Assembly: GCA_038046805.1 (NCBI GenBank)
Contig: JBBSVO010000003.1
Location: 51,120 to 115,119, forward strand
DNA length: 64,000 bases
Reading direction: 5' to 3'
Source of the DNA: Candidatus Micrarchaeota archaeon
GTDB lineage: Archaea; Micrarchaeota; Micrarchaeia; Anstonellales; Bilamarchaeaceae
Shown here: positions 12,176-61,171 of the stretch, one piece after another
Layout: every line of letters starts with the position of its first letter
Position numbering within the stretch: the first letter of the stretch is position 1
Notes under the pieces: model-generated
Databases searched by the model: none
Told to the model about the DNA's origin: nothing
The model's input: only the letters and a program-made list of their open reading frames with translations
Translations under genes and position numbers: made by a program

Positions 12176-12871
12176 ATGAAAGCATTTATCTTGTGCGGCG
12201 GGGAAGGGACTCGGTTAAGGCCATATACCTATACTACTCCAAAACCCTTGTTGCCGGTTGGAGGAAAGCCAATACTGCAACATCTTGTTGAGCATTTGAA
12301 GAAATATGAGATAAAGGAATTTGTATTAACTGTTGGATATCTAAAGGAAAAAATAATGGAATATTTCGGGGATGGAAAAAAATTCAGTCTTAAAATAGAA
12401 TATGCTACCGAAGATACACCGAAAAATACTGCTGGATCGATTCGTGATTATCACGGAAAGGTAAAGGAAACGTTCGCGGTTTTGATGGGGGACCATATAA
12501 CAGATATAAACATGGCAGATATGCTAAAATCCCATAAGAAAAGCAAGGCTATCGCAACTGTCGCACTTTTGAAAAAGGAAACAAAAATTGAATACGGAGT
12601 TGCAGAAATTGACAAAAAAACCGGAAGAATAACTGGATTTTCTGAGAAACCTGTTATAGAGCACGATATCAATACCGGAATATATCTTTTTGAGCCAGAA
12701 ATTTTTGATTTTATCGAGGACAAGGACGATTTTGCGAAACAGGTTTTTCCAAGGCTTCTGAAAGCAGGAAAGCCGATAAATGCTTATGTGGCTGAATTTG
12801 AATGGCTGGATATTGGAAGGGTAGCTGATTATGAGAGAGTAAAACAAGAATGGAAGATAGGGGACGATTAG
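12176..12871 (+). CDS. Sugar-phosphate nucleotidyltransferase
   Basis: GGEGTRLRPYT...PKPLLPV, EKP, WLDIG. Confidence 0.92.
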   Translation: MKAFILCGGEGTRLRPYTYTTPKPLLPVGGKPILQHLVEHLKKYEIKEFVLTVGYLKEKIMEYFGDGKKFSLKIEYATEDTPKNTAGSIRDYHGKVKETFAVLMGDHITDINMADMLKSHKKSKAIATVALLKKETKIEYGVAEIDKKTGRITGFSEKPVIEHDINTGIYLFEPEIFDFIEDKDDFAKQVFPRLLKAGKPINAYVAEFEWLDIGRVADYERVKQEWKIGDD

Positions 12872-12949
12872 CTTCTGGGTACTGGCTCCTAGCTAGCTTC
12901 TGACTGGTAGCTCTCCAGATTATAAAATATTCCCAACAATCATTTAATC

Positions 12950-13037
12950 CTACGATGATGACATAGGTGATCACCGAGCCTATCCCTAAGCTTCGGCCAC
13001 GGAGAACGCGATGAGGATTGACGTGCGGTCTGAGTAG
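12950..13037 (+). ncRNA. Box C/D sRNA, D guide matches 16S rRNA around C1402
   Basis: Terminal stem CTAC/GTAG, C ATGATGA 12955, D' CCGA 12974, C' ATGAGGA 13011, D CTGA 13030, TATA about 12920. Confidence 0.85.
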
Positions 13038-13050
13038 TTCTATTGTCTTA

Positions 13051-13178
13051 GGTCTAGAGTCCGATAAAAATGTCAAACATTTTTATGGACCACACAATTG
13101 TTGCTCAGAGCAACAATGTGCACATTGTCCTGCTGGACAATTGTGTTGAACGATGCGTCGTTCAATCGGTCTAGTGTC
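13051..13178. repeat. Stacked-palindrome element
   Basis: Hairpins ATAAAAATGT/ACATTTTTAT, ATTGTTGCT/AGCAACAAT, ATTGTCC/GGACAAT, TTGAACGA/TCGTTCAA, flanked by GGTCTAGWGTC direct repeats. Confidence 0.7.
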
Positions 13179-13224
13179 TCGCCTGAAAGGATATCCTCAA
13201 AAGGTTTTTCATAGAAAGATTAGT

Positions 13225-24948: not shown

Positions 24949-25107
24949 GTAAAAAACACCTCTGAAAGATATATTGATACTGAGTTAGACTAGCGGAATT
25001 ATTTATAAGCAAGGTTCGGAAACGTAACTGAACGCGGAACGCAAAACTCGAAACAGAATTATGCCTGGTTAACGTATTTATTTAAACAATGTCCGCAAAA
25101 TCCAACC

Positions 25108-26572: not shown

Positions 26573-26736
26573 GTTATAGATATAGTTAAAAAAGGATATA
26601 AATCCATCAGTTACAATCACCCTTCAGAAAGCGACTAAAAATAGAATAATAGACACAACCCGAAACTGGAAACAAGAAACCATAAAGCTGCTGCATCAAG
26701 CTTTTCGGCTCATTACAGAACTGAAAACCGGAGACC

Positions 26737-26968
26737 CGAAACAGTAAACAGCATGTGCCACACGTGTTCAAGAGCCCTTCAGGGGGAGCGCCCCCTAAAG
26801 TGCTTCACCCCCAGCAACCCCCCATAGCGAATAGACTTCAAGACACAAAACTCGAAACAGTAAACAGCATGTGCCGCACGTGTTCAAGAGCCTTTTTGGC
26901 TTATGGTTTCTAAGGGCAAAAACGCGTCGCGAAAAACCATGGAAAAGCATTGTGCCGCACGTGTTCAA
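26737..26968 (-). repeat. Three copies of TTGAACACGTGYGGCACA (3' end of candidate RNA) separated by structured or heptamer inserts
   Basis: Copies near 26754-26771, 26870-26887 and 26951-26968. Two copies share 40 nt of context. Spacing 116 and 81 nt. Confidence 0.85.
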
Positions 26969-27025
26969 CACACCTTCATAGTTTAAACTCAGGCGGCCAT
27001 TAGCGCACGGCACAGGATAAATAAA
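26948..27025 (-). ncRNA. Candidate archaeal box H/ACA guide RNA
   Basis: Basal stem GCCGUGCG/CGUGCGGC, internal pocket, CGCCU/AGGUG stem with K-turn (CUGA...UAUGA), 3' ACA, promoter AAAGGTATATAT about 25 nt upstream. Confidence 0.6.
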
Positions 27026-30790: not shown

Positions 30791-30953
30791 AATCACCTTT
30801 CTTTGTATATTGTCTCTAATTATTTTGGAGGAACAAAACTCAAACAAATCCGAACAAACGTGCGGAAAAAATAAATAATAAAAGAAAAAGCGCAGATAAA
30901 TGCGCGCAAAAAAGAAAAACAAACGCGAAATGCGAGACCCGAAACGCAAAACT

Positions 30954-43940: not shown

Positions 43941-44038
43941 TATATATAACGTAAACAAAAGGGTATAAAAAGAGGCAATATACGATTTAATAAAACGCTG
44001 AACCAAAAATCGAAAACACTAGACTGGAAACAAAAAAA

Positions 44039-44409: not shown

Positions 44410-44424
44410 ATAGCCACCATTACG

Positions 44425-46703: not shown

Positions 46704-46759
46704 TGTTGTTCCGCTATCCGAAGAATTTTTAATTCCAATCCTGCAACGTTTTCTTATTA

Positions 46760-47048: not shown

Positions 47049-47095
47049 ATTTGTATTTTATAATTATCAGTTCAAATGAATCTGGATGTGTTTAT

Positions 47096-48034: not shown

Positions 48035-48204
48035 TACCGATTCGGAATATTAGCATTTATCTCGATGGTTCAGTATCCAGTGATCTGCTGATCACTAGCT
48101 GTTCACCAATGTGGTGAACATAGATCGAGCCATCTACAACTTCGAAGAAGTTGGAGAGACAGAGAATGCAATTCTCTGGGAAAAACTTATTTGGCTCGGG
48201 CGTA
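48006..48204 (+). repeat. Stacked-palindrome insert with 10-bp direct repeat, terminal inverted repeats and BHB-like junction
   Basis: CTCGGGCGTA at 48006 and 48195, CCAAATAAGT/ACTTATTTGG, at least five internal hairpins. Confidence 0.7.
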
Positions 48205-48253
48205 AACAGGGATAAGCAAAAACCTTTTAATCTCCAACTTCTTTTATGATACT

Positions 48254-48904: not shown

Positions 48905-48961
48905 TTCTAAACAGCACGCTTTAAATCCCCTTTGCGACGCTAATTTTAGAATAAATTAAAC

Positions 48962-49073
48962 GGGGTCATGGGCTAACCTGGTAGACTACCGGCCTTGGGC
49001 GTCGGTGATTAGAGTTCAAGAGCCAGTCTAGACGCAAAACTCAAGACTGGAAACACAAATCTCTATGACCCCA
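48962..49073 (+). tRNA. tRNA-Pro(TGG) with 39-nt T-loop intron (about 49020-49058)
   Basis: Acceptor GGGGTCA/TGACCCC, TAGAG-TTCAAAT-CTCTA restored on removal, junction ambiguous by 2 nt. Confidence 0.9.
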
Positions 49074-49122
49074 ATTTTTCTTTTTTTAATATGTGATCCG
49101 CGCTAGCGATGCGCATTCTGCG

Positions 49123-49560
49123 TTAGTTTTCCGGCATCCTTACAAGAATGAGAGACTGACCGGATTTTGAACCAGACCGTGGTTTTACTACAAAACCTTC
49201 TTTTTCATACAGCACGAGCGCACTTTCATTTTTTGGGCTGACTCTCAGGTAAACTGGTTTCCCAGACTTGAATAGAGGTTTGAGCAATGCCGAACCAACC
49301 CCCGTCGAACGAAATTCGGGAAGAACACCAAGACCCTTTACGGAAATTGAGCCGCCCGTTCCCATGCTCTCTGAAAAATTAATAAATCCTACACGTTTGC
49401 CATCAACCTCAGCAACAGTAACTTTATCGTCTTTTTTGATTATTGTTTCCGCATCGATTTCAGGGAAGATCGCATGAATTAATTTGGTTATTTCGATTAG
49501 TTCGTCTTTGCGCATTGGACGGATTTTTATTTCCTCCGACCGATGTTGTAGATGTCCCAT
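49123..49560 (-). CDS. GNAT acetyltransferase (RimI-like)
   Basis: LGVLPEFRSTGVG, N..A..LYEK.GF. Confidence 0.88.
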   Translation of the reverse strand: MGHLQHRSEEIKIRPMRKDELIEITKLIHAIFPEIDAETIIKKDDKVTVAEVDGKRVGFINFSESMGTGGSISVKGLGVLPEFRSTGVGSALLKPLFKSGKPVYLRVSPKNESALVLYEKEGFVVKPRSGSKSGQSLILVRMPEN

Positions 49561-49692
49561 TTCAAATCCCGGTTTCTCTCTAATTCATCAACTATCTGAC
49601 TCAGCAAGGAAGCTTTTATTTGTTTATACTGGTCTGGAGTAGGAAGAACATTTTAGAGCATTCTTGAAATTTGCTTTTTGTATTTCATTTTT

Positions 49693-50397
49693 CTATTTCT
49701 CGAAATGCCTTGTTGCCGAGTCAAGCATTGCTCTGAATTCTGCAAGAAGTTCATGAACAAGATTTAGTGCAATATGTTGCATCGCACTTGATTTGTTACC
49801 TGGGTACTTCCGTAGTACGTCATAAAATAGTTTGTAGTACGCAATTTCGAACTCGGTTTCAGAAACGTGAATGTCTGGAAGGTCTGTATATGTACCAATT
49901 AATAGATTGGTCTGGAACGCACCAGTTAAATTCTCGTAACATCTCGGTTCCAGCCCATTTTCTACCGATGTAAAGGACGAAACGGGTTTTAGCTTGATTA
50001 AAAGATTGCCAATAGCTCGATCCAGTCTTATCAACCCAGATATGCTCAAAAAAGAAAAACCAGTTGGAGAATTATTTTGAAAGTTATTGAAATATATTGA
50101 TGCGACTACTGTGGAAGTGTCCGTATACAAGGAGAAGCATCCGACTTCGATTCGTGCTGAACCACTTTCAATACTCACACCAGCAGTAGTTCTTTCAGTA
50201 ATTATAGCTGAGTTGACTCTGCGCAAATCTTGCATACGTCTGAATTGCTTTTCAATTTCTGGTTCTGACCTTGAGAAATATCGTTTTTCTTCAGTCTTTC
50301 CTATAACGCCATCTAATCTTTCGAACGTTTTTGTGCATATACGCTCTGTTCTTCTAAATTGTTCGCAAATTCTAGGACGATTTTGGAAGTGGTTCAT
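49693..50397 (-). CDS. Hypothetical protein
   Basis: Long ORF after beta-rich gene. Confidence 0.65.
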   Translation of the reverse strand: MNHFQNRPRICEQFRRTERICTKTFERLDGVIGKTEEKRYFSRSEPEIEKQFRRMQDLRRVNSAIITERTTAGVSIESGSARIEVGCFSLYTDTSTVVASIYFNNFQNNSPTGFSFLSISGLIRLDRAIGNLLIKLKPVSSFTSVENGLEPRCYENLTGAFQTNLLIGTYTDLPDIHVSETEFEIAYYKLFYDVLRKYPGNKSSAMQHIALNLVHELLAEFRAMLDSATRHFEK

Positions 50398-50407
50398 ATA
50401 TACCAAC

Positions 50408-51073
50408 CTATCTTATCGGAACTTCAATACCAAGCTGCGCGTTTGCCGCCAGCAGTTTTCCATCCTCTGGGTCTGACATTCCGAAAGCCCTTACAAAGAA
50501 ATTCGCGACTTTTGTTTTCAGGGTTAATTGCACTGTTCCTCCGGCATTTGGAGATTCTTTTCCCTGTACAAATGGGACAATCGCTGTTGCTGAAACAGAG
50601 ACTGGGTCAAAACCCAAATCCGCACCAGCAAAAACCGGAGTGTTTCCTGTTATATCCAGTTCTGCACCTGCGCGTAGACCCAAGGAACTTGAAGACAAGT
50701 GTGCTACTCCGCCGAAAGCCCTTTGATTTCCAAGAAACCGACTTCTTTGTGCATACGCGGTTAATCCAAACCCACCGGGGGCAGACAGAGTAAGGTTTGC
50801 CCCTGCTTTTTCAAGCGAGGTCGCTCCACTCTCTAAATCACCGGCAAATGCAGTGCCAAGCCCTAGATTAGCACATCCAAATGTAAGCGAATGCTCAATG
50901 CCCAAACCTGCTTCATGTGTCTCTCCCTTTGACGTTTGATAAAATGCCTGAGTTGATAAACGGCTCTGTAATGAATCAGCATTTGCCTTGAATGGCAAAA
51001 GCAGCGTTGCTACAGACGCCACGACAGTAATTACTTTTCCAGAGCTTCTGCTAACCGTTTGTAAACTAACCAT
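50408..51073 (-). CDS. Secreted beta-strand-rich protein (beta-barrel-like)
   Basis: Signal peptide ending KANA, alternating Gly/hydrophobic strands. Confidence 0.65.
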   Translation of the reverse strand: MVSLQTVSRSSGKVITVVASVATLLLPFKANADSLQSRLSTQAFYQTSKGETHEAGLGIEHSLTFGCANLGLGTAFAGDLESGATSLEKAGANLTLSAPGGFGLTAYAQRSRFLGNQRAFGGVAHLSSSSLGLRAGAELDITGNTPVFAGADLGFDPVSVSATAIVPFVQGKESPNAGGTVQLTLKTKVANFFVRAFGMSDPEDGKLLAANAQLGIEVPIR

Positions 51074-51179
51074 AAGCACATCACCTTTCTAATTTTTCTA
51101 CAGCAGTTTGAACTGCAGTTTATGATATTATCTACGACATACCCAATATTTAAATGCTATTGGTGGCAATTATCACCAC

Positions 51180-51929
51180 ATGTACGAGTCGACATTAGAG
51201 GAGCTAGGGCTTACCTTAAACGAATCTAAGGTTTACGAGGCGCTTTTGTCGTTAGGCAGTTCTTCTATCGAGCAAATTGCAATTAAATCCAAGGTTCACA
51301 GAAGAAATATTTACGATGTTCTTGCCAAGCTATTAGAAAAAGGGTTAATCTCCGAATCATTCGACTATAATAGAAAAGAGTACCGTGCCATTCACCCATC
51401 GCGTTTGCTGGACTTGATACAGGAAAAGGAGAATAAACTACAGATTATTCTGCCAGAATTGGAAAAACGTTTTAGTCACTACGAGGAAGAGGAAACTGCA
51501 TATATGTACAAAGGAATTAACGGTTTTAAGCAGTATCTACAAGACATCCTAGACGTAGGAGAAACAGCTTATTTTATCGGGGCAAAGGGATTTTGGCTTG
51601 ATCCAAGGCTCCAATATTTCCTGCCAAAATTCGAGATAGAACGAAAGAAACTCGGAATAAAATTCATGCACATCTTTGATTATGAGGTAAAGGAACAGAA
51701 ACCGGAGATATTGAAATTGGTTGGCCGACCATACAAATTCCTGCCGAAGGATTACTCAAGCCAGACCTCAATTGATTTCTTTGGTGACAGAATAGTTACA
51801 TTCGTTGGAGTTAAACCCGGCCAACTTGACGAGGAACCCACCCAGTTCGTAATGCGAAGCAGACGATTAGCAGACGGTTACAGAAAATTCTTCAATTTTA
51901 TGTGGGATAAACTTCCATTTGACTATTAG
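51180..51929 (+). CDS. TrmB-family regulator
   Basis: LGLT.NESKVY.ALL...RRNIYDVL..L.EKGLI. Confidence 0.9.
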   Translation: MYESTLEELGLTLNESKVYEALLSLGSSSIEQIAIKSKVHRRNIYDVLAKLLEKGLISESFDYNRKEYRAIHPSRLLDLIQEKENKLQIILPELEKRFSHYEEEETAYMYKGINGFKQYLQDILDVGETAYFIGAKGFWLDPRLQYFLPKFEIERKKLGIKFMHIFDYEVKEQKPEILKLVGRPYKFLPKDYSSQTSIDFFGDRIVTFVGVKPGQLDEEPTQFVMRSRRLADGYRKFFNFMWDKLPFDY

Positions 51930-51934
51930 TTACC

Positions 51935-52609
51935 CTACAATGAAAAGAACTCCGCACCCACGTTTCTTGTTTTCTCGTCAATCTCCGCAATACAATACCT
52001 TCCAAGCTTTGCCGCAGGAACTTTGATTATGTACGTGCTGCCAAGCATTGCCATGCCTTCAAGTTCATGAACATGCCCGCAGAACACGACGAGCGGCTTT
52101 TTTTCCTCGATGATTTTCCGCACTGACGAACTTCCAATGTGTAGATTCCCGCGCGGACTTGTAACTTCGTCAAAGAATCCGAGTGGGGGCACATGGAGAA
52201 TGAGAATTGTATTATTATCAATAGGAAGTTTTTGCATCTGTGTGTGAATCTCATCTTCGCTTAATTCACCCGGAGTTCCGAACGGAGTTGGATTTGATTT
52301 TCCGAAACCAACAACATTCAATCTATCTGCCAGCTCAACCCGCTTTCCATGCAGATAACCTTTATGAGAAGTAGATGATGAAACCCTCTTAACCGCATTT
52401 TCCGGTTCGTTATTTCCAGGGATAAAAAAACAGTTTTCAAATGACGAAACGACTTCCTCCAGAAACTTCGGGCTGTCGTTTGTAGTATCTCCTAAGATAA
52501 GGGTAAAAATGCATTTTGATTCTTCGTATTTTTTCCGCAATTCCTCAAACACGACCTCTTCGTCATGAAGGTCTGAGAATACGAAAACGTGCATGGAATG
52601 GTCAGCCAC
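51935..52609 (-). CDS. Calcineurin-like metallophosphoesterase
   Basis: SDLH, LGD, PGNNE, HVPP, CGHVHE. Confidence 0.9.
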   Translation of the reverse strand: MADHSMHVFVFSDLHDEEVVFEELRKKYEESKCIFTLILGDTTNDSPKFLEEVVSSFENCFFIPGNNEPENAVKRVSSSTSHKGYLHGKRVELADRLNVVGFGKSNPTPFGTPGELSEDEIHTQMQKLPIDNNTILILHVPPLGFFDEVTSPRGNLHIGSSSVRKIIEEKKPLVVFCGHVHELEGMAMLGSTYIIKVPAAKLGRYCIAEIDEKTRNVGAEFFSL

Positions 52610-53546
52610 CGATTTCCTTGGTCTGTGTTGGTCCTTCCTTTACCCCAACTCCCTTTTGCGCTTTCTCCTTTGCTTTTGTATACTCGTCCATTATTTGGGT
52701 ATAACGCTCATCAAAACGCTTAATCAACGAATCACCGAGTTTGTTCTTCGTGAAGTGATCCGCTTTTGCAGCCAGGGCAATAGAATTTGCAAGAGCACGG
52801 GCGATTTTTCCTCGCACAACCTTGGGTGATGCGGAAATACGAACGTGCTGGAATATGATTCCGTGCTTTGGCGGATCTATTTTTCTGTTCTTCAAATGCT
52901 TGAAAAGGGCCTTTTCAGCACCAAGAACCTGAATAGTGCTTGATGGAAGTATTGAAAGGCGGGCAAGTGAACCAACATGTGAAATAAGTTTTGCCGCGAT
53001 ATCCGAACCTGCAACTGCCGAGATATTTGGACAGACTTCATTGGTCAGTGTTTCAAGATATTTCGCATACTGATCCTTGAACTTGTATAGCATGAGAAGC
53101 TGATTTGCAAAGTGTCTGCACTGTGTAAGGTCCTCTTCTGTAAGGGGTGCGCCAATGCTTTTACCACATAAAGAGATTATTTCGTTTGATTTTCCGCTCC
53201 CGACGATTTTGGACAATTCTTTGGCATCAGGATTTGTTTTATCAAGAACCATGATAATCTCGCAGTATTTCCTGCGGTCTTCAAGCCTTAACTCCGGAAG
53301 ATAAATGCCATATAATTCTTCAAGTCTTTCCCCTAAGGCATTCGCAACTTGAACTGTCTCGTCTATTACTCTGGACACATTGGCAAGTAAAATGTCCTTT
53401 CCGCCAAGAGCCTTGGTTGTGGCTTCTGCTGCTTTCTGAAGAAACATCGAACGCTTGTTTGAAGGGCTGAAACCCTGTTTTTTGGGCTTCTGACCCGATC
53501 TGTTAGGACTACCGCCCCTGCTTCCTGTTGAATTTGGTCTAGGCAT
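52602..53546 (-). CDS. nop5: C/D sRNP protein Nop5 (Nop56/58)
   Basis: PSSTIQVLGAEKALF, PPKHGIIF, GKIARALA. Confidence 0.93.
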   Translation of the reverse strand: MPRPNSTGSRGGSPNRSGQKPKKQGFSPSNKRSMFLQKAAEATTKALGGKDILLANVSRVIDETVQVANALGERLEELYGIYLPELRLEDRRKYCEIIMVLDKTNPDAKELSKIVGSGKSNEIISLCGKSIGAPLTEEDLTQCRHFANQLLMLYKFKDQYAKYLETLTNEVCPNISAVAGSDIAAKLISHVGSLARLSILPSSTIQVLGAEKALFKHLKNRKIDPPKHGIIFQHVRISASPKVVRGKIARALANSIALAAKADHFTKNKLGDSLIKRFDERYTQIMDEYTKAKEKAQKGVGVKEGPTQTKEIGG

Positions 53547-53674
53547 AATGAGATAGTTGGCGGAATACTATTTAAAGCATATCTTATCTCAATTATAACG
53601 TGGCGGTTAGCTCCTAGCTTCTAGGTACTAGCCCCTAGCCAAGAGCCAGGAGCCATAAATAACAGGTAGAAACC

Positions 53675-54193
53675 ATGACAGATATAACCAAGCTCACAAA
53701 TGAAACCATAAACAAGGGCGGAGTGCTGGCCATATTTTATTTTGACCTCCATGCGACCTCAACGGACATGCTGCAGCAACTTGGAGCCGGATTTATACAG
53801 AAATTACTAAGCGAACCAGGAGTTGTAACTGCATTGGGGGAAATAGACGAACCAATAGAAGCAGAGGCTAAAGAAGGAATTGACAGAAAGATGCTATCCA
53901 CAGCAATCGAGGTAAAGATTCTGGTGAAATCATTTGCAGATATAGCAAGGATATGTGCTGTATATAGCCCATTCTCTATTGAAATCCTGCGACCAAGCGA
54001 AATAAAACTCCCATTGGACAAGGCACACGAACTCCTTACAAACATTTCAACCACGACGTTTGGATATAAAAAACACATCGTTGAAAGACTTTCAACAAAA
54101 GAAGAGCTGGAGAATTACAAAAAAGTAATCCAACAAAAGATGGAGTTAGGAAAGAAGTTGCTTGAAAAAAAGGATGGCGCTGATAAAAAGTAA
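53675..54193 (+). CDS. Hypothetical protein
   Basis: Y.P.SIEIL.P motif, upstream of KaiC-like ATPase. Confidence 0.75.
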   Translation: MTDITKLTNETINKGGVLAIFYFDLHATSTDMLQQLGAGFIQKLLSEPGVVTALGEIDEPIEAEAKEGIDRKMLSTAIEVKILVKSFADIARICAVYSPFSIEILRPSEIKLPLDKAHELLTNISTTTFGYKKHIVERLSTKEELENYKKVIQQKMELGKKLLEKKDGADKK

Positions 54194-54207
54194 ATTGAGG
54201 GATTTGC

Positions 54208-54906
54208 ATGCTTAAACGCGAATTTGTGAAAACCGGAATACCAGGACTGGACGAAATATGTGGTGGAGGATTTCCACGGGAATCAATCATAACTCTGAGC
54301 GGGCCTACTGGATGCGGAAAAAGCACATTTGGTATGCAATTCCTTGTAGAAGGTGCATTGAAATACAAGCAACCAGGACTTTACATTTCAATAGAACAGG
54401 ACAAACAATCAATGTTCCTGCATATGAGCGGGTACAAATGGGACCTTGAAAAACTTGAAAAAGGCAAACAACTCGTGTTTTTGGATTATCCGCTTCACGA
54501 AGTAGACCAATTCATGCAGCAAAACAGCGCAATTGCCGAGATAATCAATACAACCGGGGTTGAACGGGTTGTAATAGATTCCGTAATGCCGCTTGCGATT
54601 ATTTTTGCAAATGACGACGAACGAAAAAGGGGATTCCTCAGCCTGATAGATCATATAAGAAAATGGGGTGCGACCGTGTTGATTATTTCAGAGGATACGC
54701 CGGCGACTACCCAGGATGTGTTGCCGGATACAAGATATGGGATTGAAACGCTCAGCGACGGCTGGATGCATATATACTTTCTTTATGATAAAAGCAGGGA
54801 ACGTAAAAGAGCAGTTGAAATAATCAAAATGAAAGGTGTTGCCCATTCGAGCAAGATATACCCGCTTGAGCTTGACGATGATGGTTTTAAAGTGAATCGG
54901 GAGTAA
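54208..54906 (+). CDS. KaiC/RAD55-like RecA-superfamily ATPase
   Basis: TGIPGLD....GG.P, GPTGCGKS, VVIDS, IKMKG. Confidence 0.92.
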   Translation: MLKREFVKTGIPGLDEICGGGFPRESIITLSGPTGCGKSTFGMQFLVEGALKYKQPGLYISIEQDKQSMFLHMSGYKWDLEKLEKGKQLVFLDYPLHEVDQFMQQNSAIAEIINTTGVERVVIDSVMPLAIIFANDDERKRGFLSLIDHIRKWGATVLIISEDTPATTQDVLPDTRYGIETLSDGWMHIYFLYDKSRERKRAVEIIKMKGVAHSSKIYPLELDDDGFKVNRE

Positions 54907-55432
54907 CGATTATTCCGAAAACGGATTTTCCGATTTTGCTGCTGGCAGAGATACCGGAACTGCAATCGATAATGATTCGTTTATCGGTTTTTTTGAACCG
55001 CTCGCTGTTTGGTTTGTCTTCTGCACCAATGATTATGTCAAAAACCTCTCCGGCATCTCCCTTAAAATTTTTTCCAATCCGCCCTACGAGAAGTCTCTTT
55101 TTTTCTACAAAGCCGGATAAAACCAATTTTGAAGGAAGAGGAACAACAACGCGCGCTTTTATTTTGAGAAGCCGCTTGATTAGTTTTTCACTGCCAGTTG
55201 CTGCGGCGCCCTCAACCTGGATATTTACAACATAAGTCAGATGGTCGTATATATCGAAATTCATCTCATTTCCGTGTTCGGCATCAAGATCGACAATGTG
55301 GATAAGTTTAATCCCTTTTTTCTTCCATTCACGCGCAAGCTCTGTTGGCTTTCCAATGAGAATAAGCGAACCCTCTGCTGATTTGGAGAACGCCTGCTTA
55401 TCTTTGACATATATCAGGGGAATCTGCATCAT
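54887..55432 (-). CDS. Truncated/degenerate HisA-like protein
   Basis: IP.I......, P.ELA..W...G.KLIHIVDLDA...G..N. Confidence 0.7.
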   Translation of the reverse strand: MMQIPLIYVKDKQAFSKSAEGSLILIGKPTELAREWKKKGIKLIHIVDLDAEHGNEMNFDIYDHLTYVVNIQVEGAAATGSEKLIKRLLKIKARVVVPLPSKLVLSGFVEKKRLLVGRIGKNFKGDAGEVFDIIIGAEDKPNSERFKKTDKRIIIDCSSGISASSKIGKSVFGIIVTPDSL

Positions 55433-56775
55433 GAATTCACTTTTTCAGTTTTATTTTTTACCATATTTATCCTTGTAATTAAAGCTTGCATAATTGGAGG
55501 GGTTACGATAGTTGTAAGCAAGGCCATGGTGGCCAATATCGAATATTCTGCCGGATTCAGGATTTTCGTTGTCAAACCTATCGCAGCAACTATAAGCGCA
55601 ACCTCTCCGCGCGGTGCCATGCCAAAGCCAACTATAGCGGCTTCTAGCTTGGTTAGGCCAGAGAAGAATGCTGCGATCCCGCAGCCAATTACTTTTGTGA
55701 ATATCGCAAGAACTGAAATAATCAAAATCGGCACCAGGAAAATTTGTAGGGCATTTACATCCATCAGCATCCCGAGCGAGATAAAAAATATCGGCATGAA
55801 CAGCATCTCAAGGCCGTATGTTTTTTCTTCAATTTCCTTGTTGTGCCTGCTGCTGTTCAGGATTATTCCTGCCATGAACGCGCCAACTATAGCCGAGAGA
55901 CGTATGAATTCTGCAATATATGAATAGAATAAGACCAATGCAAGAACCATCAAAAATCGTTTTGCGTCCAGTTCCTTCTTGTCCAGGTATTTGACAAAGT
56001 AATTACCCGAGATTACGGCACCTGCAAGAAACACAATGGCTGTGATGAAGGTAGTAATCAATGAAATTGCAGTCGCATCCTGCCCTCCAACCCCGGTTAT
56101 GTTTATTACGAATGACAGAACGAGAAGTGCAAGGATATCATCAAGCACTGCTGCACCAATTATGATTTCTGCAAAATGCTCGGACATTAATTTGAATTCT
56201 TTTAGAATCGCCACCGTAACACCGACCGATGTTGCGGTTAGTGCCGCGGCGACAAACATGGAATATACAAAACTTCCTCCTGTTGAGATTGCGTAGAAGT
56301 AACCTACTACAAAAGGGATTACTACGCCAGCAGAAGCAACAAACAGGTTGTCGAATGCGAATATTTTCTCAATCTTGTTGTGCATGCCGACTTTAAACAA
56401 AAGAACGATTGCACCAAGCTGCGCAAAGACGCTGATAACACTTTCAAACCTTAGTATAATAGGTTGGTTCGCTGGAATGCTGAATGGAAGATTTAAAGTT
56501 CCAAGAAACTCCCATGATATGGATAAAAAACTAGGGCTTAATAGAACCCCCAGTACCATGAGAATCATAACCGTCGGTTGTTTGGTATATACCACCACCA
56601 ATTCCCCGACTACTGCCAGAAGAAGCAGGAAAACTATTTCGAAATAGATATGCTTTTCTTCCTCAACCTCTCCAAATACACTGGTCCTAACTATTGAAAT
56701 TACCAAAAGTAGGAATATACCCAGTACCAACAATGCGATAGTCGGTAATGCCTTTTTTATAGTTTCCTGAATCAT
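55429..56775 (-). CDS. Cation:proton antiporter (CPA2/NapA-like)
   Basis: ATSVG, AAVLDD, GAF.AG, PRGEVAL, many TM segments. Confidence 0.93.
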   Translation of the reverse strand: MIQETIKKALPTIALLVLGIFLLLVISIVRTSVFGEVEEEKHIYFEIVFLLLLAVVGELVVVYTKQPTVMILMVLGVLLSPSFLSISWEFLGTLNLPFSIPANQPIILRFESVISVFAQLGAIVLLFKVGMHNKIEKIFAFDNLFVASAGVVIPFVVGYFYAISTGGSFVYSMFVAAALTATSVGVTVAILKEFKLMSEHFAEIIIGAAVLDDILALLVLSFVINITGVGGQDATAISLITTFITAIVFLAGAVISGNYFVKYLDKKELDAKRFLMVLALVLFYSYIAEFIRLSAIVGAFMAGIILNSSRHNKEIEEKTYGLEMLFMPIFFISLGMLMDVNALQIFLVPILIISVLAIFTKVIGCGIAAFFSGLTKLEAAIVGFGMAPRGEVALIVAAIGLTTKILNPAEYSILATMALLTTIVTPPIMQALITRINMVKNKTEKVNS

Positions 56776-58115
56776 TCAAATTTCACCAATCTTTCAATCG
56801 CATCCTTCACAAAAACAAAATCCTCTTTTCCGCTTTTCATATCCTTTAGCGTGATTTTGTTTTCCTTTGCCTCGCGCTCACCAACTACCGCAAAGAATGG
56901 CATACCCAGAGAATTTGCATAATCCATCTGCTTTCTCAGGTTGCGCTCATTGAGATCAGTTTCCGTTGCGATACCAGCCGCCCTAAATTCTCCAGCTACC
57001 TTTGCCGCATAATTATAAAACTCTGGTTTTACACAACCAACAAATACCTTTGTGTAGGTTTTAGCAGTTCCGCCCGAATTGTTCTTCGCATTGCGTTCTT
57101 TGATAAGGGTTATGAGCCGCTCGATTCCGATTGAGATTCCGATTGCGCAATCGGGCTGGCCATAAAGACCTAAAAGCTTGTCATATCTTCCTCCGCCTGC
57201 GATTGTCCCGATTCCGTCAGAAAGTTTTATTTCAAATACCGGGCCTGTGTAATAGCCCAATCCACGGACCATCGCCAGATCAACCACCACTTCAAATCCA
57301 GCAGAATCGCACAATGAAACTATTTCGCGAAGCTCTGCAACACCTTCTGGACAGACATTCTCAACTGCGCGCAACTTATCCTCGTTCTCCCCGCTCATTT
57401 TCACGAGTTCAAGAACTGTTTTTGTTGCCTTTTTACCTATGATTCCTTCAAGCTCCACGCGGACTGCAGCCTCTCCGATTTTATCTGTTTTGTCAAGAAC
57501 CCGCAATATATCATTTATATTATCGCCCATGTCCAGGTCATCCACAATCGCGTCCATGATTTTGCGGTTATTTAGCAGGATTCTTGGATTTTCAAATCCA
57601 AATCCAACAAGTGATTCTCGAGCCACGGACAAAACTTCTGCCTCTGCACGCATAGACTTGCTTCCTATGACATCAATATCAGCCTGCCAGAACTCGCGGA
57701 ATCTTCCGCGTTGCGGCTCTTCTTTTCTCCATACATTGGAGATACAATATCTTTTGAATGGCTTTGGCTCTGCGGTATTTGATGCAACCCTTGCAAGCGG
57801 GACGGTAAGATCGAATCTGAGGCCGTATTCGTTCTTTCCGATTTTGTTCTCGCTGTTCTCGCCGTTTTCGCTTTTTTCCGTATTTTGTTTTTTTCCGCTT
57901 CCGCTCACGATTTCAAATATCTCGCCTTCAATGTCTTCTCCTGCCTTTGCTCTAAGAGTTTCGAGATATTCCATAGCCGGAGTTTCAAGCGGCCTGTAAC
58001 CATACTTACGGTACACGGCTTCGATCTTAGCGAAAACCTCATTGCGCAGTATCATATCCTCTGGGAGAAAATCCCGCATTCCTTTAGGGGTTGATTTTGA
58101 CGACATAGGAATCAT
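56772..58115 (-). CDS. hisS: Histidyl-tRNA synthetase
   Basis: PKGMRDFLP, LRFDLTVP, GRFREFWQ, RGLGYYTG, GGGRYD. Confidence 0.97.
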   Translation of the reverse strand: MIPMSSKSTPKGMRDFLPEDMILRNEVFAKIEAVYRKYGYRPLETPAMEYLETLRAKAGEDIEGEIFEIVSGSGKKQNTEKSENGENSENKIGKNEYGLRFDLTVPLARVASNTAEPKPFKRYCISNVWRKEEPQRGRFREFWQADIDVIGSKSMRAEAEVLSVARESLVGFGFENPRILLNNRKIMDAIVDDLDMGDNINDILRVLDKTDKIGEAAVRVELEGIIGKKATKTVLELVKMSGENEDKLRAVENVCPEGVAELREIVSLCDSAGFEVVVDLAMVRGLGYYTGPVFEIKLSDGIGTIAGGGRYDKLLGLYGQPDCAIGISIGIERLITLIKERNAKNNSGGTAKTYTKVFVGCVKPEFYNYAAKVAGEFRAAGIATETDLNERNLRKQMDYANSLGMPFFAVVGEREAKENKITLKDMKSGKEDFVFVKDAIERLVKFE

Positions 58116-58131
58116 ATTAACACCAAACCAA

Positions 58132-59193
58132 TTAATACCTGACCTTGGCGGATTTTACCGCATCTTCCAGAGCATACATAACCCGAAATGCAAGCTCCCA
58201 TAGGTCTGCGCAACCAGAAAGGTCTGGAAGCAAACCCAGGGGGGTTGGGGTTCTCAAAACTGCGTACTCGGGATATTTCCCAAGTTTTGACTTCAGTCTT
58301 AACAGATCATTAAATGCATTTATTGGAGGGAATGGCACGCAAAGCGGGCAAAAATCAGATATGGATTCAACTGCCTTAAATGCCAGCCTTGCAATCTCCG
58401 GGATTTTTCCGCTATCGAATTCAAATGGGGAAACCGCATAGGCAAGCTCCGGACATAAAATGCCAGGCAACAGAAGATAGAATTCACTGTAGTTCCATGA
58501 AGCAGATGGCCGCACTTTTCCCTCCAATGCCAATTTTTCTATATCCTCGAGCGAATACTTTCCATACTTGCCTCCGTAAAAGGTTTGCGGAATAAGAAGG
58601 CGCCCTTCTTTCACGAATAGCTGGCCTATCTTCTGCCCGCTTGACTTGAGATTCATTAGCACAATCTTTGAATAAAATGGAGACAAGTCACGGACATATG
58701 ACACTTGCGGTATCCTGCCTGCCTCCTGCCTAAATGAATCTGCCATAAGGTCTCCGCGCGCATTCCTTAATTCGTCCAGCGAGGTATAAGGTTCTGGCTT
58801 AGGGACGGTTTCGCGAAGTACAATTGCATTATCAACATCCCAAACATACTGAGATATGAAACTATCCTTGTAAGGCGCAGGCATCCAGCAATCCAAAGTA
58901 AGTTCAAGAATCCCAAAAGGAACCCCGAGTTCTCTTGCAATGGCAAAACCCATCAAAGCCTCTGCATCCAACCGTGCGAGTTGCCGTGGAAGAACAACTC
59001 CACACAGGTTTAGTTCCAGAGAATCGAAATCCACGCCCCATCTTTCCTTTAGGTATTTGCGTGCCTTTGAAGAACAATCCGAGGATGCTCGCTGTCTGGT
59101 TTCTTCCCCAAACTGCTCTTTTGAAAGAACGTATGGGAGCCTAAAGGTTTCCCTGCAGTATTTTTCAGCAATACCACGGATATCACTTCGCAT
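58132..59193 (-). CDS. Hypothetical protein downstream of radical SAM
   Basis: 353-aa ORF, no recognised motif. Confidence 0.7.
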   Translation of the reverse strand: MRSDIRGIAEKYCRETFRLPYVLSKEQFGEETRQRASSDCSSKARKYLKERWGVDFDSLELNLCGVVLPRQLARLDAEALMGFAIARELGVPFGILELTLDCWMPAPYKDSFISQYVWDVDNAIVLRETVPKPEPYTSLDELRNARGDLMADSFRQEAGRIPQVSYVRDLSPFYSKIVLMNLKSSGQKIGQLFVKEGRLLIPQTFYGGKYGKYSLEDIEKLALEGKVRPSASWNYSEFYLLLPGILCPELAYAVSPFEFDSGKIPEIARLAFKAVESISDFCPLCVPFPPINAFNDLLRLKSKLGKYPEYAVLRTPTPLGLLPDLSGCADLWELAFRVMYALEDAVKSAKVRY

Positions 59194-59297
59194 ATCCGAA
59201 ACAGTGAAGTAAATCCCTTCCCATTCTCTGTTCCCGATTCTCAGCTCCTGGTTTCAGGTTTCCCGCTCCAGGCCTCCTGTTTTCTGTTTTGTACATT

Positions 59298-60284
59298 TCA
59301 AATCCCTCCTTTTTGTTTTTCAGTTTTTTCTCTTTCTGAACGTGACAAATAGTGATACGCCGGACAATCAAGCGGATTTCCCTTTGATGAAAACTCCCTT
59401 TCTCGCACGAGTTCTCCGTCCTCATAGCGGCCTATTGCATTTTCAGGCTGTGTGAGGTAGATACATGGATAGATATTGCCGTCAACCCCGATGGTAAGGC
59501 CGCCATCCCTTGAACCTGCACCACAGCAAAATTGTTTTTTCCTGAACTGAGTGCCTAAAGAGCCTGCAGCTGAAAGATAGATAGCCGGATAGCGGATGCG
59601 TAATTCATCAAGCATCCCGAAGAAATTCCCAGTTTCCTGCTCAGTTAGCATTTGCGGACCTTTTCCATTAATCCGCAAGTATCTCAAGAACTGAACCACC
59701 TGCGCGCCCTGACAGATACACTCTTCGGCCATTTGCGGGACAAAATCCAAATTCCTCTGTGTAATAGTGATGCGCATCATCAATTCAAGTCCGCTTGCAA
59801 CCACGCGCCTCGCAGCCTCACGCACGATATCAGAGGAGGTAAGCCTCAGTCCGCTGTTTTCAAAATTCGCGGTCAGGACAACCTGCCTTATCCCAATATC
59901 CCTTATCTCTTCGCACAAATCCGATTTTTCAACAAGAACTCGGCCATTTGTAAGAACAGATGTTGAAGCAGAAGCCTTGAGGATTTCGGCCAATCTTCTG
60001 AATCGCAGAACCTCAGTTGTGCTTGCGAATACGGAAAACCCGGCTTTCCTGAACCTGAGAAGATCTACGATTATCGCCTCTTCGGTTCTCTTGATCCTCT
60101 TTTTATATGCGCCTCCGGATAGCACAAAACACCCAGTGCAGCGCGAATTGCAGGGAGGTTCTGTTTCTGGCAAAAACATATATGTAATTGTGGGGCGCCG
60201 TGCGAATTTCTTCATATATTCCGGAATTGATGCAAATTTTCGGCCGCACGCTGGCGCGCAGGTAGGATTAATCATTTTTTCCAC
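59298..60284 (-). CDS. Radical SAM protein with short SPASM/twitch-like C-terminus
   Basis: CNSRCTGC, TNG, CGAG......I..DG.IYPC......IG...CPA. Confidence 0.9.
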   Translation of the reverse strand: MEKMINPTCAPACGRKFASIPEYMKKFARRPTITYMFLPETEPPCNSRCTGCFVLSGGAYKKRIKRTEEAIIVDLLRFRKAGFSVFASTTEVLRFRRLAEILKASASTSVLTNGRVLVEKSDLCEEIRDIGIRQVVLTANFENSGLRLTSSDIVREAARRVVASGLELMMRITITQRNLDFVPQMAEECICQGAQVVQFLRYLRINGKGPQMLTEQETGNFFGMLDELRIRYPAIYLSAAGSLGTQFRKKQFCCGAGSRDGGLTIGVDGNIYPCIYLTQPENAIGRYEDGELVREREFSSKGNPLDCPAYHYLSRSEREKTEKQKGGI

Positions 60285-60555
60285 CTCGACACCTTCCGTA
60301 CCTCAAATAAGCGCAATTTCTTGAGAATTTCCGCCCGTTTGCCATATCGCTGTCGCTGGCTTTCGCTAATTCAATAATGATGCTATTGGCTCCTGGCTTC
60401 TGGCTACTAGCTACCGGCCAACTGCCACTAGCAATTCGGATAATTATTTTTCCATTCGTTTCAATTCCGAGAGCCTCGCGTATTTCCAGCGGTAAAACTA
60501 GACGCGCCTTTGAATCAAGCGCAATAACGTATTTTCGTTGCTCAATGAAGTACAT
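60268..60555 (-). CDS. AbrB/MazE/MraZ-type DNA-binding protein
   Basis: LDSKARLVLP.EIREALGI, with in-frame heptamer-derived insert. Confidence 0.85.
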   Translation of the reverse strand: MYFIEQRKYVIALDSKARLVLPLEIREALGIETNGKIIIRIASGSWPVASSQKPGANSIIIELAKASDSDMANGRKFSRNCAYLRYGRCRGGKND

Positions 60556-60663
60556 CCCTTTTTGTGAAGTACATCCCTTCCTTTGTTCACCATATCCATT
60601 ACCTGTTTCTGATTTTCTTTGCTTACAGATATTGTATCTTTCCCACTTAATATACGTTTCGGT

Positions 60664-60972
60664 TTATTGATTCAACACCAGCAAAAAGCTTGTGTCTTTA
60701 TTCGCACTTAGCGAATGCACTGCCTTTTTCTTCATGTGGATAAACGTGCCAGGAAGCATCGGGATTCCCTCTCCCTCTAGAGTGAACGTGCCGTTGCCTT
60801 CTATAACATAGACTAACCCTTCTTTGGTGGACGTATGCTCGCCAAGCTCCGTTCCCTTTGCCATGCAGAACAACGTAACATCCACTTTATCGCTTTTTGA
60901 TATTACCTTGCTCACAATGCCGCCGTTTGAATACGAAATCATTTCCTTCAGGTTTTTCCATGTTTTTGGCAT
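60664..60972 (-). CDS. Cupin domain protein
   Basis: TLF....G..L.EHTS...G...VIEG.G...HSL.A. Confidence 0.9.
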   Translation of the reverse strand: MPKTWKNLKEMISYSNGGIVSKVISKSDKVDVTLFCMAKGTELGEHTSTKEGLVYVIEGNGTFTLEGEGIPMLPGTFIHMKKKAVHSLSANKDTSFLLVLNQ

Positions 60973-61031
60973 GACGGGAATTCACGATTTACAGTTTATA
61001 TTTGTTTCCGTTCATAATTCTTAGATGTTAT

Positions 61032-61171
61032 AGCCCCGTCGTCTAGAGTCTTGTGTCCAGCGTCTAGAGTTTCAAAAATACGAGACTGACGACTCAAGAC
61101 ACGAGACGGACTTTGGTCAAGGATGACAGGCTCTGGACCTGTATACGTCGGTTCGAATCCGATCGGGGCTA
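61032..61171 (+). tRNA. tRNA-Gln(CTG) with 67-nt intron at 15/16 (61047-61113)
   Basis: Acceptor AGCCCCG/CGGGGCT, helix GTCT/GGAC with bulges AGA and TTT, 73-nt spliced product. Confidence 0.93.

Follow-up and report, generated by a model that had tools for sequence, protein, structure and literature searches.

The window, a stretch of 64,000 nt of a Candidatus Micrarchaeota contig (assembly GCA_038046805.1, JBBSVO010000003.1, positions 51,120 to 115,119), belongs to the 1.2 Mb draft genome (G000; 86% complete) of a tiny archaeon of the symbiotic type, whose tRNA genes are very rich in introns. It contains tRNA genes interrupted by introns, and tracts of degenerate 7-nt units which lie in spacers, in tRNA introns, in a leader and in an open reading frame (ORF). 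These features are listed below, with the period-7 match of each tract.

12868..12915, plus strand: CTAGC/CTGGC-type heptad tract directly past a stop codon; match 0.49
25013..25058, plus strand: GAAAC-type (NCRRRAC) array, divergent intergenic, with 4 strict units at 25027-25054; match 0.44
26651..26752, plus strand: two GAAAC-type arrays (26660-26680 and 26715-26749) in a 485-nt non-coding region; match 0.49
26838..26868, plus strand: GAAAC-type array of 4 units; match 0.67
30921..30953, plus strand: GAAAC-type array flanked by two minus-strand ORFs (TRF period 7, 4.6 copies); match 0.69
43993..44032, plus strand: weak GAAAC-type array immediately 3' of, and antisense to, tRNA-Gly, with 3 strict units at 44011-44031; match 0.48
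44039-44189, minus strand: tRNA-Gly(TCC), free of heptads, its D-loop intron belonging to the CCTTTTGG family
45137-45342, plus strand: tRNA-Ser(CGA), with two introns, one of 14 nt at 37/38 (45175-45188) and one of 110 nt in the T-loop at 59/60 (45219-45328)
46760-47048, plus strand: tRNA-Thr(CGT), with a D-loop intron of the CCCTTTTGAC family carrying hairpin inserts, and an anticodon-loop intron
48962-49073, plus strand: tRNA-Pro(TGG), with a T-loop intron containing a 4-unit RRAC array (49027-49054)
53598..53658, plus strand: CTAGC-type tract in the leader of ORF 53675-54193; match 0.74
59224..59292, minus strand: degenerate array of ~10 units, GTTYC-like on the plus strand, between two minus-strand ORFs; match 0.56
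60385..60433, minus strand: CCAGC/CTAGC-type tract in frame in the AbrB/MazE-like ORF 60268-60555, encoding about ASGSWPVASSQKPGAN
61032-61171, plus strand: tRNA-Gln(CTG), with a 67-nt intron at 15/16 (61047-61113) and two array arms, GTYY at 61041-61075 and RRAC at 61083-61110

Nearly all tRNA genes of G000 escape standard tRNA finders. Only 4 reach the Rfam cut-off, and within the window ARAGORN, whether or not run in intron mode, and Rfam, at gathering as well as E-value thresholds, returned at most 2 partial tRNAs; a 1605-nt 'intron' called by ARAGORN was false. The genes were rebuilt by hand and by script, which gave a home-made, incomplete catalogue of 33 genes. Enumeration of all splice combinations resembling a bulge-helix-bulge (BHB), with 151078 spliced products passed through ARAGORN, was found to be too permissive for automatic intron calls, and only those calls backed by comparison with relatives were retained from it.

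A preliminary description of this DNA had placed GAAAC-type tracts inside the Ser, Thr and Pro introns, and arrays were indeed observed in all three. In tRNA-Ser(CGA) the RRAC array (45302-45322) closes the T-loop intron (...GCGAAAC GGAAAAC CAAAAAC, followed by TGAA AA|T), and the anticodon-loop intron of tRNA-Thr(CGT) is made of inverted heptad arrays (~46940-47010) which include a 5-unit RRAC array at 46973-47007. The same-genus genome G001 has unrelated sequence at this anticodon-loop site, and different introns in its tRNA-Gly(TCC) orthologue. The Gln(CTG) intron had been described as two inverted heptamer arrays with a first unit that is mostly exon, and this too was borne out: GTCTAGA comprises D-stem positions 10-13, A14, G15 and a single intron base. 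The D-loop left after splicing, AGTGGTCAA, matches exactly the one in G020, a genome lacking this intron, and comes close to the one in the intronless G035 (AGCGGCCAA).

The fraction of positions with s[i]=s[i+7] is in excess in all nine spacer, leader and ORF tracts and in both Gln arms (0.44-0.74), each being in the top 0-2.5% of 20000 random windows of equal length, which confirms the tracts first listed. The lowest values belong to 25013-25058 (0.44, the same as at period 5), in a region not conserved in G001, and to 43993-44032 (0.48); the array at 59224..59292 fails the strict RRAC/GTYY rule. Across the genome, RRAC cores spaced at period 7 form 148 arrays of at least 3 units (83 on the plus and 65 on the minus strand), compared with 3-13 per strand at other periods within 4-12, and arrays of at least 4 units number 52+43 at period 7 against 0-1 at other periods. 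A motif-free scan gave 38 windows at period 7, 28 at period 14 and 11-23 at most other periods, so that period 7 stands out both with RRAC cores and without any motif.

The tracts fall into two families, N-C-R-R-R-A-C (the "GAAAC" type), which is conserved at 6 of its 7 positions, and a CTAGC/CCAGC type. The tracts had been taken as a single type shared by introns, spacers and a coding sequence; this holds in so far as the GAAAC type reaches tRNA introns, but the CTRGCTn-type tracts are a separate family of 27 arrays (20 in other non-ORF DNA, 7 in ORFs), none of which, genome-wide, has its midpoint inside a tRNA span. Using a crude ORF map, we counted 0.06 GAAAC-family arrays per kb in ORFs, 0.58 in other DNA and 4.1 in tRNA introns. 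A comparison of introns with other non-coding DNA had been set beforehand, and for this family 16 of the 83 non-ORF arrays lay within ~3.9 kb of tRNA intron, where 3.2% were expected (binomial p ~1e-8, a ~7-fold enrichment).

Based on these observations, we regard it as reasonably probable that the tracts represent two families of DNA-level degenerate heptanucleotide arrays of this Micrarchaeota lineage, which fill tRNA introns. The typical array would be a module of ~28 nt and four units. Arrays would arise, be exchanged and change length partly by 7-nt steps, and would persist where extra bases are harmless: in spacers, in frame in floppy protein loops and, above all, in tRNA introns. Since the broad-specificity endonuclease of this genome, of epsilon2 type, would read only the BHB at the exon-intron junction, the interior of an intron would be free sequence, with the arrays serving as filling. 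The inner helix of hairpin-type introns is supplied by two array arms, the final array unit of a T-loop (59/60) intron (TGAA, GGAA or TGGA) can pair with T54-A57, and in tRNA-Gln the D-stem GTCT is paired with an AGAC/GGAC core. Tolerance would then be the likely cause of the intron enrichment, and recombination among arrays may account for their mosaic make-up.

The modal RRAC array has exactly 4 units (65 of 148; ~28 nt). Neighbouring units were identical in 7 of 335 cases (2.1%), no more often than random unit pairs, and the mean Hamming distance between units is 2.4 and unchanged with lag. Units within an array are more alike than units of different arrays (none of 2000 shuffles reached the observed value), and this likeness does not decay with distance. 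As neighbouring units are so rarely identical, simple slippage cannot be the generator of the arrays. Xanthomonas and Nostoc reportedly carry G-rich heptamer repeats (PMC4692102). Among the long repeats of bacteria, heptamers form the commonest class (Mrazek 2007, cited in PMC4679880), and TAACTGA repeats occur in Beggiatoaceae and cyanobacteria (PMC4679880). The arrays of G000 resemble such bacterial simple sequence repeats, as portrayed in the relevant parts of that paper, in being short tandem runs (2-6 units of 7 nt), mostly intergenic, patchy among relatives and of no proven function; the bacterial repeats differ between strains by indels in 7-nt steps, and some of the length differences between relatives of G000 and itself are of 7 nt. 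They are likewise tandem far beyond chance, but their units are not near-identical as slippage predicts: they form a degenerate class (NCRRRAC) in which neighbours are almost never the same and the mode is 4 units. They also differ in having an archaeal host and in being densest in tRNA introns, which bacteria lack.

Outside tRNA genes, the in-frame tract at 60385..60433 stands as described, but the AbrB identity given to its ORF is weak (Pfam MazE_antitoxin/SpoVT-AbrB, E=0.0088, 16.4 bits, under the 24.7 cut-off). In all 6 tblastn alignments which span the tract (G002, G004, G005, G007, G009, G013) the relative is 10 residues shorter, a seventh (G015) stops short of it, and the query found no match in G001. 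In G001 the CTAGC tract of the 53675-54193 leader keeps its place, with ~32 nt of additional GAAAC-type units beside it.

Rickettsia palindromic elements are short repeats which are tolerated in frame in conserved genes as well as between genes, and the heptad arrays are tolerated in the same two settings. It could be argued that the arrays are what can be seen of small, mobile and partly palindromic elements of this or a MITE-like kind, inserted ready-made into spacers, introns and ORFs; if such a module carried a closing helix and came to lie beside a fitting exon tetramer, it could be spliced out and would start an intron. The mode of exactly 4 units, the heterogeneity of adjoining units, the absence of the AbrB-like block from all six spanning alignments and of the ~32-nt block from the G000 leader would all fit such elements, as would the recurrence of a 'closing helix plus 4 heptads' cassette in five different tRNAs of two species. 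However, most arrays are not palindromic and have no defined ends, terminal inverted repeats or evident target duplication (one possible GCTAA repeat only, at C4:54079), no transposase was found linked to them, and the 7-nt step changes point to length change in place. Since the cassettes differ in sequence, there is also no copy-paste signature comparable with that of a 46-nt T-loop intron family described below. We therefore consider this explanation unlikely.

Splice sites were assigned by the hBHBh' rule (a 3-4-3 BHB cut after the second bulge base), which was checked on the canonical Arg(TCG) intron. tRNA-Gln(CTG) has a strict hBHBh' motif with H GTCT/GGAC and bulges AG|A and TT|T, scoring 4 H pairs, an outer helix of 3 and an inner helix of 10 bp. 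The same three scores are 4, 3 and 2 for Gln(TTG), 4, 6 and 0 for the Ser 37/38 intron, and 4, 5 and 0 for the Ser 59/60 intron, which is a relaxed hBH with H TTCA/TGAA and the T stem as outer helix. Under the hBH model, T-loop introns showed 3-4 H pairs in 8 of 13 cases and a poor fit in 5, including Pro(TGG) (nH=1). The MFE fold of the Gln precursor consists of the inner hairpin and the mature D stem, not the BHB central helix; as the mature D stem and the BHB pairing compete in this precursor, folding does not decide between them.

The EndA of G000 is a 393-aa ORF on contig C8 (PF01974, E=3e-29), which matches the epsilon2 EndA of ARMAN-2 (4FZ2) over residues 3-393 (E=1.2e-137). The ARMAN-2 enzyme cleaves strict hBHBh' motifs and relaxed hBH motifs at 59/60 in vitro (PMC3239211). 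G000 is like ARMAN-2 (Candidatus Micrarchaeum; PMC3239211, 4FZ2) in its endonuclease type, in introns at non-canonical sites including 59/60 and in the use of both motif classes. It differs in that its tRNA genes are more disrupted, with just the 4 reaching the Rfam cut-off, and in that the sections of PMC3239211 on these introns describe their positions and the enzyme rather than heptad content. The introns of G000 are probably excised. Public data aligned to 43900-61400 (one RNA run, a metatranscriptome, and three DNA runs, all as contigs) include an RNA-library contig that spans the unspliced Gln locus; no joint was found at any tRNA intron in this interval, contigs being unable to reveal splicing. 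Contig indels there were of 1-2 nt and none of 7 nt, among the matches listed.

The preliminary description had equated the 7-nt unit with a 4-bp helix plus a 3-nt bulge, and proposed that inverted heptamer arrays make BHB motifs, or grow by splice-linked duplication, and so give birth to introns. In Gln(CTG), one unit does form the central helix and 5' bulge (GTCT+AGA), units 2-3 make up the 10-bp inner helix, and in-register pairing of the arms gives 4-bp GTCT/AGAC helices with 3x3 loops between them. This in-phase exon unit is seen only in G000 Gln(CTG), however; in its paralogue and in the orthologue from G001 the phase is shifted by 2 nt. Where T-loop introns have a 3'-terminal array, the 7 nt of H' and bulge continue its phase in 4 of 6; this agreement with the 3' splice site tells against mere filling, and passive filling does not predict that D-loop introns always start in the GTYY orientation. 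The 7-fold intron enrichment, too, is equally expected if arrays help to create introns.

Against this proposal, a unit conserved at 6 of 7 positions means that in-register inverted arrays would give a near-continuous helix rather than a helix-bulge alternation. Only 5 adjacent inverted pairs occur among the 148 arrays, and inverted arrays were rejected as the general form. The recurrent array intron is instead a short closing helix around exactly four heptads (t25 and t26 of G000; t5, t19 and t22 of G001), so that the array is an unpaired loop and not a splice motif. The same arrays lie between genes in both orientations and in frame in ORFs, and heptamer repeats are common in bacteria, which lack tRNA splicing of the BHB type. 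The equality of 7 nt with 4+3 looks coincidental and did not hold up as a mechanism; such numerology is not worth carrying forward.

Comparison with relatives bears on the same proposal. Between G000 and G001, 28 orthologous tRNA pairs differ by 20 introns, of which 5 are heptad-built and present in one congener only (t5, t19, t21 and t22 in G001; t7 in G000); together with the 73-nt, intronless Pro(TGG) orthologue of G005, these would be expected if arrays were a route to intron birth. The other 15 are not heptad-built and belong to other repeat families. The Gln 15/16 intron exists in G004, G009 and G023 with unrelated content and no heptamers, and identical sites without arrays are also known from ARMAN-2, going by the positions described in PMC3239211. 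Since the Ser(CGA) D-loop heptad intron is present in G005 as well, its absence from G000 looks like a loss. Taken together with the few intact tRNA genes of array-free relatives, these findings make creation of splice motifs by the arrays quite improbable, while the turnover of introns between relatives is plain.

Two families show near-identical introns at the same position in different tRNAs. One is the 46-nt T-loop family, which G001 has in Ser(TGA), Gly, Gln(TTG) and t17 and which the G000 orthologues lack; the other is the CCTTTTGAC family. Both clearly resemble the transposed introns of Thermoproteales, where similar introns at the same position of unrelated tRNAs imply recent spread (2010 work, as summarised in PMC4090602). 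The heptad introns of different tRNAs differ from these in that they have a building plan and a pool of units in common, their architecture alone being alike and their sequences not. Length differences of 7 nt between the congeners were found in both arms of Gln(TTG) and once in t25, and the Gln(CTG) intron measures 67 nt in G000 and 60 nt in G001; other differences are not multiples of 7 (29, 10 or ~32 nt, for example). Alignment of the Gln hairpin shows one compensatory change from C-G to T-A.

In t26 the array is as long in G001 as in G000 and keeps its GTYY pattern (GT, Y, Y, G) although 14 of 35 positions differ, as counted from the printed rows. This, together with the CTAGC tract conserved in place in the 53675 leader and the translational role proposed for Beggiatoaceae TAACTGA heptamers in the portion of PMC4679880 dealing with them, would suit binding sites for a protein or RNA reading a 7-nt register, be it in leader or UTR regulation, in chromatin or as ring-protein sites. 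We consider such a role very unlikely. Arrays take no preferred orientation towards the genes beside them (16 sense-RRAC and 15 sense-GTYY in co-directional spacers), they also lie inside ORFs and introns, and no candidate binding protein was found. Their distribution among 41 related genomes is patchy, with 0 to 214 four-unit windows and period-8 and reversed controls near 0; none occurs in the same-family genomes G018, G019, G022 and G023 or in 13 of the 16 same-order genomes outside the family.

The genomes with 0-1 arrays (G033, G028, G027, G004) have only 4-8 recognisable tRNAs, while 31 can be recognised in G003 with its 127 array windows. Array count and recognisable tRNAs correlate negatively over the 41 genomes (Spearman -0.39, nominal p 0.012, kin not being independent), another observation at odds with the filling view. 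RT-like open frames of 114-247 aa were found in 9 of the 17 relatives with at least 10 array windows and in none of the 24 with fewer. A split RT gene of G000 (C11:460-1718), whose motifs presumably resemble those of a diversity-generating-retroelement RT, was considered as the array generator; no such frame turned up in G003 or G034, both among the three genomes richest in arrays, and the idea was dropped.

While the reading of the arrays as lineage-specific families filling tRNA introns is the one we prefer, the recurrent cassette allows a further, distinctly tentative suggestion: that the ~28-nt module of four heptads with its short closing helix is a ready-made spliceable insert, and an active source of new archaeal tRNA introns. 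A cassette which lands, or is copied, beside an exon tetramer that pairs with its end would be excised by the broad-specificity epsilon2 endonuclease, with the D-loop (15/16), anticodon loop (37/38) and T-loop (59/60) as candidate landing sites. The mechanism of intron transposition in archaeal tRNAs was called unknown in the part of a 2014 review which treats it (PMC4090602), and a 2026 preprint on Asgard archaea closes its abstract with "how they arrive remains open" (10.64898/2026.10.13.758758). None of the papers listed in our literature search tied heptamer repeats to Micrarchaeota or DPANN. Because the tRNA exons of the two congeners are almost the same while 20 whole introns differ, the gain and loss of introns is accessible to study over a very short span of time, and the differing introns sort into a few recognisable repeat families, of which the heptad cassettes are one. 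If the suggestion is true, this genus, in which 28 tRNA pairs differ by 20 introns, would lend itself naturally to watching introns being born and lost.

ARAGORN and Rfam returned just one or two partial tRNA matches within the window (G000:C3:51120-115119) and four tRNA genes above cut-off in the whole of G000, the genome under study, a draft of 1.2 Mb in 16 contigs that is 86% complete and has a G+C content of about 42%. A catalogue was built using T-arm and acceptor searches that tolerate long interruptions; this home-made and incomplete list recovered 33 tRNA genes, 84-402 nt long and with few exceptions interrupted; five lie in the window.

tRNA genes of the window, from the T-arm/acceptor search
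44039-44189, minus strand, tRNA-Gly(TCC)
45137-45342, plus strand, tRNA-Ser(CGA)
46760-47048, plus strand, tRNA-Thr(CGT)
48962-49073, plus strand, tRNA-Pro(TGG)
61032-61171, plus strand, tRNA-Gln(CTG)

An ORF at 45456-46703 sits between the Ser and Thr genes, and this DNA is syntenic in G001, a genome of the same genus. In four tRNA genes of G000 (C3:5303, C6:164489, C6:32967 and C11:15158) the 5' acceptor strand plus 1-2 bases is repeated 55-90 nt upstream, possibly for leader pairing or as remnants of integration or duplication.

The preliminary description had noted dispersed tracts with a period of 7, and these proved to be real and far above chance. In its nine tracts and the two arms of the Gln intron, identity at distance 7 was 0.44-0.74 as against about 0.1-0.4 at other distances, and each ranked in the top 0-2.5% against 20000 random windows. 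Scanned without any motif, the whole genome gave 38 windows at period 7, 28 at period 14 and 11-23 at most other periods. Genome-wide, RRAC cores (the GAAAC type; GTYY on the reverse strand) spaced exactly 7 formed 83 + 65 arrays of at least three units, compared with 3-13 per strand at spacings 4-12, and 52 + 43 arrays of at least four units, compared with 0-1. A second family, YRGC (CTAGC, CTGGC or CCAGC), contributed 14 + 13 arrays.

Both families had been described as a single set. The period is indeed common to them; their distribution is not. On crude ORF and tRNA maps, the former covering 90% of G000, the density of RRAC/GTYY arrays was 0.06 per kb for ORFs and 0.58 for other DNA, and reached 4.1 for tRNA introns (~3.9 kb). 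The introns hold 16 of the 83 non-ORF arrays where 3.2% was expected (p ~1e-8), confirming the proposed enrichment over other non-coding DNA, and the arrays reported inside the Ser, Thr and Pro introns are present. At least three strict units were found in 15 of the 33 tRNA genes. In contrast, no array of the CTAGC family, counted by midpoint, fell in a tRNA span; 7 fell in ORFs and 20 in non-ORF DNA elsewhere, and two differently behaving families had therefore been merged.

Array length peaked at four units (n=65), with 53 arrays of three, 19 of five and 11 longer. Adjacent units were identical in just 2.1%, the same as random unit pairs; units were more alike within an array than between arrays, with no decay with distance. 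Between G000 and G001 we observed differences in 7-nt steps, with both arms of the Gln(TTG) hairpin showing one. One array of equal length differed at 14 of 35 positions (counted by hand) with its pattern kept, and the Gln hairpin carried one compensatory change, C-G to T-A, read from the alignment. Relative to genes, intergenic arrays lie on either strand without preference. In the AbrB/MazE-like ORF the CCAGC/CTAGC tract codes for a loop, and the relative was 10 residues shorter at the tract in all six spanning orthologue alignments, which come from other genera. The CTAGC tract in the leader of the 53675 ORF is retained in G001, where ~32 extra nt of GAAAC-type units adjoin it. The arrays are thus probably a lineage-specific DNA repeat made up of ~28-nt modules, which would be swapped among sites and would shift in length partly by whole units. 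None of the papers listed in our literature searches tied heptamer repeats to Micrarchaeota or DPANN. In bacteria, heptanucleotide repeats make up the most common class of long repeats, and polymerase slippage has been proposed for them (Mrazek 2007, as summarised in PMC4679880), a point against tying the period to the tRNA splice motif. The assembly also breaks at these repeats: the end of contig C1 (G000:C1:66577-66638) and the start of C6 (G000:C6:1-63) overlap by ~55 nt inside a GTYY array, and on this overlap the two contigs are probably adjacent.

The period had been linked to the bulge-helix-bulge (BHB) splice motif, whose geometry we checked on an intron of canonical type, that of Arg(TCG). 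Read 5' to 3', each strand consists of 4 nt of helix and then 3 nt of bulge, and the cut follows the second bulge base; the 3-4-3 hBHBh' motif as described in PMC3239211 matches this rule. The predicted Gln(CTG) intron (67 nt, at 15/16) has the strict motif, in which GTCT of the D stem (10-13) is the central helix strand H and pairs with GGAC; AG|A and TT|T form the bulges, and the outer and inner helices are of 3 and 10 bp. One heptamer (GTCT+AGA) is here exactly H plus bulge; in the other arm two RRAC cores adjoin without a spacer, turning a 3x3 loop into a bulge. The D-loop left by the predicted splicing, AGTGGTCAA, is the same as in relatives without an intron there. In the Ser T-loop, the intron predicted at 59/60 has H TTCA/TGAA, the T stem as outer helix and no inner helix; if spliced as predicted it is of the relaxed hBH form, which the ARMAN-2 enzyme cuts in vitro (PMC3239211). 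Along its full length the G000 endonuclease EndA (393 aa) matches 4FZ2, the structure of that enzyme (E=1.2e-137).

The Gln intron, in which the first unit does serve as H plus bulge, is nevertheless no general plan. Only Gln(CTG) of G000 has the exon unit in phase; a 60-nt form offset by 2 nt is common to the paralogue, Gln(TTG), and the orthologue in G001, and the 67-nt form therefore looks derived from it by one unit. The intron at 15/16 of tRNA-Gln also occurs in three other related genomes (G004, G009 and G023), where it holds unrelated sequence that is not made of heptads, and is absent from G020 and G035. Over 430 units the consensus is N-C-R-R-R-A-C, with C at position 2 in 75% of units, a base the filter does not demand. 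Since six of the seven positions are constrained, inverted arrays in register would pair almost continuously, and adjacent inverted pairs number only 5 among 148 arrays. In the commonest array intron, a closing helix of 4-6 bp encloses exactly four GTYYNNN units, so that the array lies in the loop (for example in tRNA genes t25 and t26 of G000 and t5, t19 and t22 of G001). Taken together, these observations make the BHB an unlikely cause of period 7. The spread over 41 related genomes likewise speaks against it: four-unit array windows ranged from 0 to 214 per genome, with reversed and period-8 controls mostly at 0-5 and at most 12 (G034). Genomes with 0-1 arrays (G033, G028, G027 and G004) had few recognisable tRNAs (4-8), the array-rich G003 had 31, and the correlation of array count with recognisable tRNAs was -0.39 across the 41 genomes, whose kin are not independent.

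The arrays may still be put to use at splice junctions. Six T-loop introns have an array at their end, and in four of them the last 7 nt (the second helix strand H' plus bulge) are in array register (GGAATTT, TGAAAAT, GGAATGT and TGGAATT), with chance at ~1/7 each in this post hoc count. Units starting TGAA, GGAA or TGGA are able to pair with T54-A57; D-loop introns always open in the GTYY orientation, and T-loop introns close with RRAC. This suggests that selection draws on array units wherever these suit a junction.

Several other elements were seen. A candidate C/D-box small RNA (ATGATGA ... GATGAGGA ... TCTGA) lies at ~12950-13040 on the plus strand, between a CTAGC tract and hairpin mini-elements. 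At 26750-26990 the module GCATGTGCC(A/G)CACGTGTTCAA(GAGCC) has three copies, all within one non-coding region of 485 nt; GTTCAAGAGCC is also found at the start of the Pro T-loop intron, and a 60-nt G/C-hairpin element (26766-26826) has copies in G001. A reverse transcriptase gene (G000:C11:460-1718, minus strand; motifs YVDD and GNLTSQ) is broken into overlapping ORFs of 211 and 208 aa. Of the relatives, 9 of the 17 with 10 or more array windows have RT-like open frames (114-247 aa) and 0 of the 24 below that number do; the same search did not find them in two of the three array-richest genomes.

Heptads are not the only intron content. A structured, conserved family (CCCTTTTGAC ... GGACAAAAGCG ... 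GAAAAGTCCT.AGGCA ... AGTCAAAAGGG) occurs in at least 10 of the 33 tRNA genes of G000, in the D-loop and at times in the T-loop or anticodon loop.

Copies of this family in the window
46775-46915, in tRNA-Thr
44095-44175, minus strand, in tRNA-Gly
45222-45260, in the T-loop of tRNA-Ser

Judged by sequence, one family in unrelated tRNAs is a signature of intron spread among genes. A 46-nt family (AGC.TTGAA ... TTCAAAATT ... GCAA.GC.G.CAA) sits at T-loop 59/60 in G001 Ser(TGA) (locus L098), Gly (L161), Gln(TTG) (L135) and t17 (L078) and is absent from the G000 orthologues; one G000 tRNA (G000:C3:197250-197484) also carries it and its G001 orthologue does not. Such a pattern looks like an intron that was copy-pasted, very recently, into the same position.

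Via their exon ends, 28 of the 33 tRNA genes were matched in G001 (1.18 Mb), and the exons of these pairs are almost identical. Reading the block comparison by eye, we assigned intron classes and counted 20 whole introns that only one of the two species has (the other has 0-2 nt there), 13 of them in G001 and 7 in G000.

Species-specific introns, by content
Heptad-built, 5: G001 t5 at 37/38; G001 t19, t21 and t22, D-loop; G000 t7, D-loop
46-nt family, 6: five at T-loop 59/60; a D-loop variant in t27
CCTTTTGA family, 2: t24 and t26
Other, 7: various

Polarity was mixed when outgroups were compared. Pro(TGG) lacks introns in G005, has a T-loop intron with heptads in G009 and has a D-loop intron without them in G002; the D-loop heptad intron of Ser(CGA) is shared with G005 and was therefore probably lost in G000. 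The proposed route to intron birth is partly supported, by the enrichment, the one clean Gln case and the five heptad-built species-specific introns; an origin of period 7 in the BHB is unlikely, and the other 15 species-specific introns are not built of heptads. With 20 such introns of several families, intron turnover in these tRNA genes is thus very fast and involves several repeat families, the heptads being one among them.
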